Below, piece after piece: positions 13,295-55,126 of a stretch of DNA of 64,000 bases. Below the pieces are notes generated by a model, which was given only the letters and a program-made list of their open reading frames with translations, had not been told where the DNA came from and searched no databases. Both the position numbers and the translations under genes were made by a program. The DNA comes from Escherichia phage slur07: sequence record NC_028780.1; one strand, 5' to 3'. Position 1 is the stretch's first letter; every line of letters begins with the position of its first letter.

Positions 13295-13756
13295 ATGATT
13301 ATTAATGAAAACTCTTGGCACTATAAATTATTCAAATTGTTTAACGATGAATGGCAACGACCTAAGACATTATGCGCATATTTTTGGTCTATTGCCATTC
13401 CTACATTTTTCGTTTCTATTTTTGGGTGTGCTATACTCGTAGGGTTAACAATTATTTGTGCAGAAAGCCTACAACGTTGGCTTATTTTCGGTAGTTTATG
13501 GACTCTTCTTCCATCGGCATTTATACTTGCACTTTTGGTTGTTTTACTTATTATCGGTTCATTTGTTATTCCTGCACATTTGCGTGAAAAATATAAAGAT
13601 TATAAATGGAAAAAGGATTATGCTTTACACGTAGAAAATATTGATAGAGCGTATAAAGGTTTACCTCCTATTCAACCCAAGAAATCGATTATCGTCGAAT
13701 TTTTAAAAGCTCGTAAAGCTAAAGTATGTCCTGTTATTGAATATAAGGCTGAATGA
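13295..13756 (+). CDS. membrane protein
   Basis: 153 aa, two to three hydrophobic helices. Confidence 0.55.
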   Translation: MIINENSWHYKLFKLFNDEWQRPKTLCAYFWSIAIPTFFVSIFGCAILVGLTIICAESLQRWLIFGSLWTLLPSAFILALLVVLLIIGSFVIPAHLREKYKDYKWKKDYALHVENIDRAYKGLPPIQPKKSIIVEFLKARKAKVCPVIEYKAE

Positions 13757-14765
13757 TGAAAACAGTAATGAAAAGCTATTTTGGTAGTCATCTTTATGGA
13801 ACTTCTACCCCAGAATCTGATGTAGATTTTAAAGAAATTTTTGTTCCTCCTGCTCGCGATATTCTTATCGGAAATGTCAAAGAGCACATGAGTAAAAACA
13901 CTAACAACACATCATCTAAAACACTAAAGATGATATTGACCATGAACTATACAGTCTTAAATATTTCTTTAAATTAGCAGCAGATGGTGAAACTGTAGCA
14001 TTGGATATGCTTCACACTCCACCTGAACTAGTGGTTAAATCTGATTTGCCTGATGTGTGGAAGTTTATTCAAGACAACCGTTCTCGTTTTTATACGACTA
14101 ACATGAAATCCTATTTAGGATATGTCCGCAAGCAAGCTTCTAAATACGGCGTCAAGGGTTCTCGTTTGGCTGCATTACGTGATGTATTGAAAGTAGTTAA
14201 TCAAATCCCTGAGCAATGGGTTGATTACCAAGAAGACGGTTCCATTAAGCAGCGTCGTACTAAAGTTGAAGATATTAAGCATCGTCTTCCAGAAAACGAA
14301 TTCTGTGAATGGGTGTTCCATAATCATGAGAAAACAGGTCCACAAACGTTCTATACAGTGCTGGGTCGTAAATATCAGACAACGCTTTCTCTTATTGAGC
14401 TTAAGCAGTCACTGAACAAATTAGATGCTGAATATGGTGAACGTGCTCGTAAGGCCGAAGCTAATGAAGGTATTGATTGGAAAGCACTAAGTCATGCTTG
14501 TCGTGGTGGACTTCAACTATTGGAAATTTACAAAACTGGCGACTTGATTTATCCACTCCAAGATGCTCCATTTATTCTCGACGTGAAGTTGGGTAAACAT
14601 CCATTTAAAACAGTTCAAGAGTTTTTGGAAGATGTGGTCGATCAAGTAGAAGCAGCATCTACTGAAGCTTCTAAGAATGGTATGCCTAAAACAGTAGACA
14701 TGAGTTTCTGGGATGACTTCCTTGAGAAGGTCTATCTTGAAAACCACCGAAGTTATTATAAATGA
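13753..14765 (+). pseudogene. nucleotidyltransferase-fold gene split by a frameshift (two ORFs 13753-13977 and 13920/14001-14765)
   Basis: N-terminal ORF carries GS...SDVD NTase motif (FGSHLYGTSTPESDVDF); second frame opens at 13920 and overlaps end of first. Confidence 0.5.
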
Positions 14766-14767
14766 TA

Positions 14768-14792
14768 GGGAGCCTTCGGGCTCCCTTTTTTA
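14768..14792 (+). terminator. rho-independent terminator
   Basis: GGGAGCC-TTCG-GGCTCCC followed by TTTTTT. Confidence 0.6.
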
Positions 14793-14815
14793 TTTCAAAA
14801 ATTTTTCACAAAACT

Positions 14816-14845
14816 GTTTACAAGCATAAAGCTTTATGGTACTAT
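14816..14845 (+). promoter_or_regulatory. T4-type early promoter with A/T UP element
   Basis: GTTTAC 14816-14821, TACTAT 14840-14845; upstream AAAAATTTTTCACAAAACT. Confidence 0.6.
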
Positions 14846-14889
14846 ACAACTATCAACTGATACGGATTTGGAGAATAAAATGAAAACTG
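14837..14889 (+). repeat. promoter-leader-start cassette, near-identical copy at 42058-42110
   Basis: 53 nt identical except 2 positions, runs from -10 through RBS into first 3 codons. Confidence 0.8.
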
Positions 14890-15848
14890 TAACTATCAAT
14901 AAGGGTATCTACTTCGGTAAAGAAATCTCTGGAACTTTTGAGCTCTTAGGTGAATGGTTCCCAGATAATGCTCCGGTAGATGCGCAAGGAGATGGTAAAG
15001 TTTTTGTTGAAATTGACGGTAAACGTCGCGGTGTTTGGGTTTACAAATCAGACATTTCATATGATGGTGTAAAAGTTGAAGAAGTTAAAGAATCGTATGA
15101 AGATATGAAAACCCGCATTAATAAAAGATTTAATGTTATGGGAATGATGACGAATGGTATTATTAATGGAAATATTCGTTCATTAATTATCTCTGGTGCG
15201 GCGGGTATTGGTAAAACGTATTCTTTAGATAAAGCTTTAAATAAAGCAAATGATATTGGATACATTGAATATAAAAGCATTAACGGTAAAATCTCCGGTA
15301 TCGGTCTTTATGAACAGCTTTGGAATAATCGTGAAGAGAATTCTGTCCTTTTGATTGATGATGTGGATGTTTTCTCTGATATGGACATTCTTAATCTTCT
15401 GAAAGCTGCTCTGGACACTGGAGAGACCCGTAAAGTCTGCTGGAGCACCGCATCTTCTTACTTAGAAGAAAAAGGCATTGAGCGTGAGTTTGAATTTAAA
15501 GGAACGATTGTTTTTATCACAAACGTTGACATTGACCGCGAATTAGACCGTGGTACTAAACTTGCTCCACATTTACAAGCATTAGTGTCCCGCTCAGTTT
15601 ATTTGGATTTGGGTGTTCACACTAATGAAGAAATTATGGTCAGGGTTGAAGATGTTATTCTTTCAACTGACATGATGCAAAAGCGCGGTCTTTCTGATGA
15701 AGAAACTTATAAAGCATTATCATGGATGAAAGTCAATGTTAATCGTTTACGCAATGTTTCACTGCGTACTGCTCTTTATCTTGCTGACTTTATTATGACC
15801 GACAAAAATGGTTGGGAAGAAATTGCTGAGGTTACTCTTCTGAAATAA
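14880..15848 (+). CDS. AAA+/P-loop ATPase, function unknown
   Basis: Walker A GAAGIGKT, Walker B LLIDDVD; 322 aa. Confidence 0.65.
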   Translation: MKTVTINKGIYFGKEISGTFELLGEWFPDNAPVDAQGDGKVFVEIDGKRRGVWVYKSDISYDGVKVEEVKESYEDMKTRINKRFNVMGMMTNGIINGNIRSLIISGAAGIGKTYSLDKALNKANDIGYIEYKSINGKISGIGLYEQLWNNREENSVLLIDDVDVFSDMDILNLLKAALDTGETRKVCWSTASSYLEEKGIEREFEFKGTIVFITNVDIDRELDRGTKLAPHLQALVSRSVYLDLGVHTNEEIMVRVEDVILSTDMMQKRGLSDEETYKALSWMKVNVNRLRNVSLRTALYLADFIMTDKNGWEEIAEVTLLK

Positions 15849-16895: not shown

Positions 16896-17303
16896 ATGAA
16901 ACAGTTGATAATTAAAAGATTGAATTTATTGATATGTTGTTTATGTATAGTAATTGCATATGGTTATTACGCAATTAATGATTATATGCATTATAAAGAT
17001 TATGATGTTACTGTAGTTAATACCTTTACAGGAACTCAAGGAAAGGGGTCTAGTTTATCGTTTATTGCCGTATATGAACTAAATGACGGTTATAGATTTA
17101 GCGAATATATTTCACTGGAGATGTATTCTTCAATAGAAAAAGGTGATAATATTACTGTAAGTTTACGTCCTTTCGACGTAAAACAGACATTGTTTGATAA
17201 TATTGTTTGGTTCTTTGGAATGGTATTAGTTCAATCTGTGTGTGGTGCTTATATAGTCTGTTCCATCTTATTCTGTATATTTAGTAAAATTGAAATTGAG
17301 TGA
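16896..17303 (+). CDS. membrane protein
   Basis: 135 aa, N- and C-terminal TM helices. Confidence 0.55.
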   Translation: MKQLIIKRLNLLICCLCIVIAYGYYAINDYMHYKDYDVTVVNTFTGTQGKGSSLSFIAVYELNDGYRFSEYISLEMYSSIEKGDNITVSLRPFDVKQTLFDNIVWFFGMVLVQSVCGAYIVCSILFCIFSKIEIE

Positions 17304-26950: not shown

Positions 26951-27022
26951 CACATTCTGTATATTACCATTCTAAGCTATCGTTCCTTTCTTATCATTCC
27001 CTAAAATATTTTTCACAAAGTT

Positions 27023-27052
27023 GTTTACAACAAGTTCAAACCGTGGTATTAT
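27023..27052 (+). promoter_or_regulatory. T4-type early promoter
   Basis: GTTTAC 27023-27028, TATTAT 27047-27052, upstream TTTTTCACAAAG UP-like element. Confidence 0.55.
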
Positions 27053-41955: not shown

Positions 41956-42036
41956 ATACAAGTAATATAAATCTATACTTATGAAAAACAGATGATTCTG
42001 GACCTTTAGAATTCCCTAAAAAATTTTCACAAAACT

Positions 42037-42066
42037 GTTTACAAGACTGTTCCTCTGTGGTACTAT
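42037..42066 (+). promoter_or_regulatory. T4-type early promoter (cassette shared with 14816 and 16255)
   Basis: GTTTAC 42037-42042, TACTAT 42061-42066. Confidence 0.6.
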
Positions 42067-55040: not shown

Positions 55041-55096
55041 TGGAAGGACTTAGATTCATTATACCATGAAAGTTTTAAAGCATTTTTCATAAAATT

Positions 55097-55126
55097 GTTT
55101 ACAAGCCAAGGTAAAAATGTTATAGT
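55097..55126 (+). promoter_or_regulatory. T4-type early promoter
   Basis: GTTTAC 55097-55102, TATAGT 55121-55126. Confidence 0.55.

Follow-up and report, generated by a model that had tools for sequence, protein, structure and literature searches.

The nrdC.11 locus and its missing base

The window, i.e., the whole 64,000-nucleotide stretch of Escherichia phage slur07 analysed here, is part of a Tequatrovirus (T4-like) genome with genes on the plus strand. Features of the region around nrdC.11 are listed in Table 1. The stub ORF encodes 74 amino acids from ATG 13753, or 73 from the second ATG at 13756, and contains FGSHLYGTSTPESDVDF; after residue 55 it runs through 18 out-of-frame residues (TLKMILTMNYTVLNISLN) to a TAG. 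The –1 frame contains a TAA at 13917–13919, is open from 13920, where it begins NTKDDIDHELYSLKYFFKLAADGETVALDML..., and ends with the stop codon at 14763–14765. Its earliest start codons, TTG at 14001 and ATG at 14007, yield an ORF of 254 or 252 amino acids, as annotated in slur07. These are the frames given in a preliminary description made from the letters of this DNA (an ORF at 13753–13977 and a –1 frame opening at 13920 and running to 14765), and their coordinates are confirmed.

Table 1. Features of the nrdC.11 region; positions are those of the window.
Feature	Position	Strand	Remarks
Upstream gene, 153 aa, hydrophobic, no Pfam family	13295..13756	+	ORF and Pfam search
N-terminal stub of nrdC.11	13753..13977	+	Residues 1–55 authentic, including G10, S11, D22, D24
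Lesion site	13918..13921	+	A4 run; A5 (TCT AAAAA CAC) in all intact relatives; alignment
Rest of nrdC.11, residues 56–336	13920..14765	+	–1 frame
T_TTA_AAT heptamer	13968..13974	+	Phased with the stub ORF by the deletion; directly 5' of its TAG
Intrinsic terminator, AGGGAGCC-TTCG-GGCTCCCT plus T-run	14767..14792	+	Closes the nrdC.11 transcription unit
T4 early-promoter-type block, TTTTCACAAAACTGTTTACAAG ... TACTAT	14803..14845	+	Taken to drive the next gene
nrdC.10 orthologue, intact, AAA/STAND-like ATPase	14868..15848	+	Context gene

The TGA of the upstream gene overlaps the nrdC.11 ATG (ATGATG, 13753–13756), a layout typical of translational coupling. Public annotations are split between the first and the second ATG as the start of nrdC.11, hence lengths of 337 or 336 amino acids. 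The terminator is annotated as such in OE5505 as well. The TTTTCACAAAACTGTTTACAAG block followed by a TACTAT –10-like hexamer occurs in four copies on the plus strand of the window (14803–14824, 27010–27031, 42024–42045, and 55084–55105), with zero to three mismatches, where none is expected by chance. The block resembles the T4 early-promoter consensus together with an upstream element, and the repeats could serve as recombination substrates for the deletion of accessory regions.

The nrdC.11 region matches 645 phage records, the best with 99.7% identity over 1101 nt. All relatives inspected have a single gene of 1011/1014 nt at this locus, variously named nrdC.11, nucleotidyltransferase, "38.9 kDa protein", and "RNA repair pathway DNA polymerase beta", and not two separate conserved genes, the arrangement that the preliminary description had named as contrary to its reading. 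Alignment with four relatives demonstrates TCT AAAAA CAC in the relatives versus TCT AAAA CAC in the window; the frame breaks after codon K55 by a one-nucleotide deletion in the A5 run. The earlier reading, that a frameshift interrupts a gene for a Pol-beta-type nucleotidyltransferase, is thus upheld, as the related phages have one intact 1011-nt gene from which the window lacks one base. The indel had been placed near the A-run at 13893–13897; this is rejected, since that run, 25 nt upstream of the lesion, is an unchanged A5 in all sequences aligned.

When the A is restored, the resulting protein of 336 amino acids has no amino acid differences from the OE5505 protein (100% identity) and is 98–100% identical to T4/T2-type NrdC.11 orthologues; at the nucleotide level, the window gene differs from the intact OE5505 gene by one substitution besides the lesion. 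With 73 and 252 aa, the two window products are exact matches to the annotated slur07 proteins CUL02416.1 and CUL02417.1. The two ORFs are one disrupted nrdC.11 gene with one nucleotide missing. The public annotation of slur07 already lists the two ORFs separately, and nothing in the split amounts to a new kind of element. The window shares with T4 and T2 the location of the gene between the mobD-side genes and nrdC.10, and the terminator and early-promoter layout; it differs in that the gene is in two parts, a stub of 73/74 aa and an ORF of 252/254 aa, whereas T4, T2, and about 650 records are intact here.

Family and predicted structure of the repaired protein

Judging from its sequence, the nrdC.11 product is a Pol-beta nucleotidyltransferase of 336 amino acids from the RlaP family (PF10127), a family of RNA 3'-end nucleotidyltransferases. 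The repaired protein scores 43.9 bits against Pfam RlaP (cut-off 23) and matches phrog_388, "nucleotidyltransferase", at 3.8e-137. For the stub alone the score drops under the cut-off, to 18.8 bits; the C-terminal ORF by itself has no RlaP match in the Pfam search. The motif hG[GS]-x9-13-Dh[DE]h is present as F9-G10-S11 ... D22-V-D24-F25, 10 residues separating S11 from D22. Among 30 homologues with 33–55% identity, the N-terminal residues G10, S11, S21, D22, D24, N56, and D62 are invariant, and D60 is nearly so. The family comprises 3322 clusters at 50% identity (E ≤ 0.001).

The motif had earlier been described as common to minimal nucleotidyltransferases, CCA-adding enzymes, and cGAS/DncV-like enzymes. 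The assignment to nucleotidyltransferases stands; the family is RlaP, and not that of the CCA-adding or the cGAS/DncV-like enzymes. A cGAS/DncV-like (CD-NTase) or defence nucleotidyltransferase is rejected, with no match in PADLOC, NCBIfam, or the CD-NTase Pfam families, and cGAS/DncV is absent from the top structural matches of the nrdC.11 model. In the copy of the PDB searched, neither the protein on its own nor a profile picked up a homologue by sequence, and the PfRlaP crystal structure that the RlaP preprint (PMC12776372) describes did not turn up there.

The AlphaFold model, built on an alignment of the 30 diverse homologues, has a pLDDT of 91.4; an earlier AF2 run, for which the alignment was shallow and confined to T4, reached a pLDDT of 54 and was discarded. 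The model of the repaired protein consists of an N-terminal nucleotidyltransferase domain with the alpha/beta core fold and a C-terminal helical domain. D22 and D24 are located at the start of beta2 (23–30), followed by beta3 (44–48), a loop (49–60), and beta4 (61–67), which carries D62. The break lies inside the beta3–beta4 loop. The stub keeps the GS and DxD residues and loses N56, D60, D62, and everything beyond, including beta4 and the whole helical domain. The third catalytic carboxylate, D62, is encoded after the frameshift, in another frame than D22 and D24, and belongs to the same polypeptide only if the gene is repaired.

Two Pseudomonas enzymes of this family, PfRlaP and PaRlaP, add one or two NMPs to an RNA 3'-OH, preferably on damaged RNA; three aspartates are strictly conserved in them, and each has a nucleotidyltransferase domain and a helical domain (2025 preprint, PMC12776372). 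The authors of the preprint propose that RlaP refills the nucleotide removed by ribotoxins such as RloC, with subsequent ligation; they also note that RlaP activity may shrink the active tRNA pool after ordinary damage, and they place T4 NrdC.11 in the RlaP family, in SSN cluster 5 (PMC12776372). The repaired protein resembles the family in a Pfam score above the gathering cut-off, in the invariant D22, D24, and D62, and in the same two domains as in PfRlaP. It differs in that the phage clade forms cluster 5, whereas the characterised Pseudomonas enzymes belong to cluster 1a (PMC12776372), and in that the window gene is broken and has no RNA ligase gene next to it; activity of the T4 type is a prediction.

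Next to nrdC.11 lie genes for a small hydrophobic protein, for hypothetical proteins, and for the nrdC.10 ATPase, with no association with an RNA-ligase or RNA-repair operon; the annotation of the collinear region of KMB23 includes no RNA ligase gene over 50 kb. The RNA-repair genes of T4 sit elsewhere in its genome. Many GenBank records of relatives call nrdC.11, nrdC.10, and about ten neighbouring genes "thioredoxin", which appears to be an annotation error spread from the nrdC prefix of the locus names.

Other A4 alleles and other lesions of nrdC.11

A contiguous product of the A4 type is absent from 651 GenBank phage records. None of five metagenome contigs has A4, all being A5, and in IMG/VR we find no A4 contigs versus four A5 contigs. 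The full-length protein belongs to a 90% identity cluster of 751 members, compared with two for the stub. In look-ups of the exact products, the 73-aa form gave a match, and the 74-aa and 252-aa forms gave none. The A4 allele is rare, with an overall frequency of roughly 1% or less.

The allele is also seen in a Logan contig of SRR32729830, whose nrdC.11 is identical to that of a 169-kb phage contig of GCA_048639585.1, and in a separate Logan contig from ERR4089631. The A4 state is counted in three independent genomes: the window, GCA_048639585.1/SRR32729830, and ERR4089631. Searching the literature for these run and assembly accessions gave no hits. Both other phages differ from the window phage, with about 95–96% identity to the window over 3–4 kb. 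The nrdC.11 gene of GCA_048639585.1 differs by 6 nt from the intact gene of Ptacy1496 and by 35 nt from the window, and that of ERR4089631 by at least 40 nt from every sequence compared. In the alleles compared, no SNP near the lesion is private to A4. Independent slippage could account for the recurrence of A4, and so could a short patch (at most about 120 nt) passed on by recombination; since no SNP is exclusive to the A4 alleles, the sequences fit either.

In ERR4089631 (contig L011, 286–1287), the A4 run is accompanied by an 11-nt deletion (gene columns 450–460), and the flanking genes are intact. This nrdC.11 looks like a decaying pseudogene. A locally divergent stretch beside the 11-nt deletion encodes ...WVDYQEGIPDRLRR...; the two lesions sum to –12, so that the C-terminal third is again in the original frame, although a stop codon comes in between. 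In GCA_048639585.1 (L017, ABYEWA010000010.1, 4125–5145), genes for a Mod-like ADP-ribosyltransferase and a DUF4031 protein lie between nrdC.11 and nrdC.10, T2 has an "RNA polymerase ADP-ribosylase" gene at this place, and the window has neither an ADP-ribosyltransferase nor a DUF4031 gene there.

Different lesions of nrdC.11 are found in other phages. Shigella phage pSs-1 (P0013/P0140) loses the frame after ...LDAEYG, resulting in fragments of 244 and 81 amino acids; Yersinia phage fPS-65 (P0147) has an 81-aa C-terminal fragment; Escherichia phage BYEP02 (P0148) has a 252-aa ORF; and assemblies of E. coli and Shigella contain phage contigs that encode fragments of 235 and 199 amino acids. The gene seems to have been repeatedly lost in T4-like phages.

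Origin of the frameshift and its consequences

Of the three alternatives raised in the preliminary description, a real pseudogene is the best supported, a sequencing indel is possible, and programmed frameshifting is unsupported. We consider it likely that the lesion is a genuine replication-slippage deletion that inactivates a dispensable gene, nrdC.11, and not a case of programmed recoding. Replication slippage of the Streisinger type would delete one A from the A5 run. Translation from the normal start would then give 55 correct residues, 18 wrong ones, and a stop; the downstream frame has no proper start. Neither fragment should be catalytically active, because the stub lacks N56, D62, and the helical domain, and the downstream frame has neither a start nor an RlaP match. 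Streisinger-type frameshifts at A-runs are the classical hot spots of T4 rII. The similarity is that a T-even phage has lost one base from a short A homopolymer, with the same run affected in independent genomes; the difference is that the nrdC.11 lesion is found in natural isolates, in a non-essential accessory gene, and outside any genetic screen, and that we infer the mechanism.

That the phage truly has A5 and an intact gene, one A having been dropped from the consensus by sequencing or assembly, is unlikely, although a one-base change of homopolymer length is a classic type of error, repair yields exactly the protein of an intact orthologue, and the lesion is found in none of about 650 GenBank phage records. 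Runs of A5 are not error-prone on Illumina, and no other coding frameshift is present in 48 kb of the window. The slur07 genome comes from Illumina MiSeq reads (2x250), and its SPAdes assembly was checked by mapping the reads (PMC4698387). Furthermore, the identical lesion occurs in two unrelated assemblies, in one of which nrdC.11 has a second lesion while its neighbours are intact, which shows that the A4 allele exists in nature.

A generally error-ridden assembly is rejected: all other indels with lengths not a multiple of three, relative to KMB23 (window 46–48608), are intergenic or fall in last codons, hence the assembly is not generally prone to homopolymer errors. One such difference is at 17293–17303, where the window has A3 and KMB23 has A4, three codons before the stop of ORF 16896–17303; it alters only C-terminal residues of a small membrane-like protein.

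It is improbable that the A5 run at codons 55–56 is a recurrent on/off switch, with loss of NrdC.11 positively selected in some hosts, for example as an escape from a host defence that senses NrdC.11, or due to the cost of wrong nucleotides on RNA ends or of tRNA mis-repair. Such a switch is suggested by the lesion at one site in three allele backgrounds, whose closest alleles are intact in each case, by the other nrdC.11 lesions in pSs-1, fPS-65, BYEP02, and the E. coli and Shigella phage contigs, and by the possible reduction of the active tRNA pool by RlaP (preprint, PMC12776372). However, five bases are short for a contingency tract (usually seven or more), and the two states are not both common: A4 occurs in three genomes, whereas the gene is intact in about 650 GenBank records and in 751 cluster members. 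The intact gene contains five homopolymer runs of length five; three hits in one of them are suggestive of a hot spot, although only weakly non-random, and a short recombination patch may explain the shared lesion. The frequency of the allele fits neutral loss of a dispensable gene, and PADLOC gives no link to a defence system. If nonetheless the switch were selected, alleles of the slur07 type would be natural knock-outs from which the role of NrdC.11 in infection could be learned.

Least credible is programmed or leaky recoding, i.e., a –1 ribosomal frameshift or transcriptional slippage at the A-run that restores the full-length active enzyme; it is rejected on slippery heptamers, RNA structure, and conservation. 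A –1 slip of tRNA-Lys on AAA (13918–13920) would give the exact wild-type SSK-NTKDD, with the junction peptide SSKNTKDDIDHELYSLK, but the base before AAA is T (13917–13921, T AAA A), so that the slipped tRNA-Lys would face UAA with a first-position mismatch; no X_XXY_YYZ heptamer is present at 13917–13921, and the favoured slip, which keeps re-pairing perfect, goes +1 and enters a closed frame. Slippage of RNA polymerase needs runs far longer than A4, which is too short for it. Within the stub ORF, a single X_XXY_YYZ heptamer is in phase, T_TTA_AAT at 13968, just 5' of the stub stop codon; a –1 slip here would produce a full-length protein, but with residues 56–73 scrambled and without D60, D62, and H63, and we regard the heptamer as a chance feature. 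No stimulatory RNA structure is seen at 13910–14010 (MFE –14.7 kcal/mol, z = –0.25 versus shuffled sequences). The locus shares with known programmed –1 frameshifting (dnaX A_AAA_AAG; phage tail-chaperone G/GT) two overlapping frames, the downstream one at –1; unlike these, nrdC.11 has no functional slippery heptamer at the restoring site, no stimulatory structure, and no conservation of the two-frame layout, the relatives having a single frame with A5.

Returning to a slippage deletion in a dispensable gene, T4 tolerates deletion of the region nrdC.11–mobD.3 (PMC9825161). Since the gene is dispensable in T4, its loss is tolerated on laboratory E. coli K-12. The recurrent lesions and the tolerated T4 deletion together fit relaxed selection on an accessory gene. 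For the annotation of slur07, the 73-aa "nucleotidyltransferase" and the 252-aa "hypothetical protein" should be labelled as one nrdC.11 pseudogene. The identical deletion in three unrelated T4-like genomes, together with the other lesions, fits NrdC.11, an RlaP-family enzyme whose link to RNA repair is recent, being dispensable outside particular hosts, and the A4 alleles, as natural knock-outs, could be controls in tests of NrdC.11 against anticodon nucleases such as RloC or PrrC.
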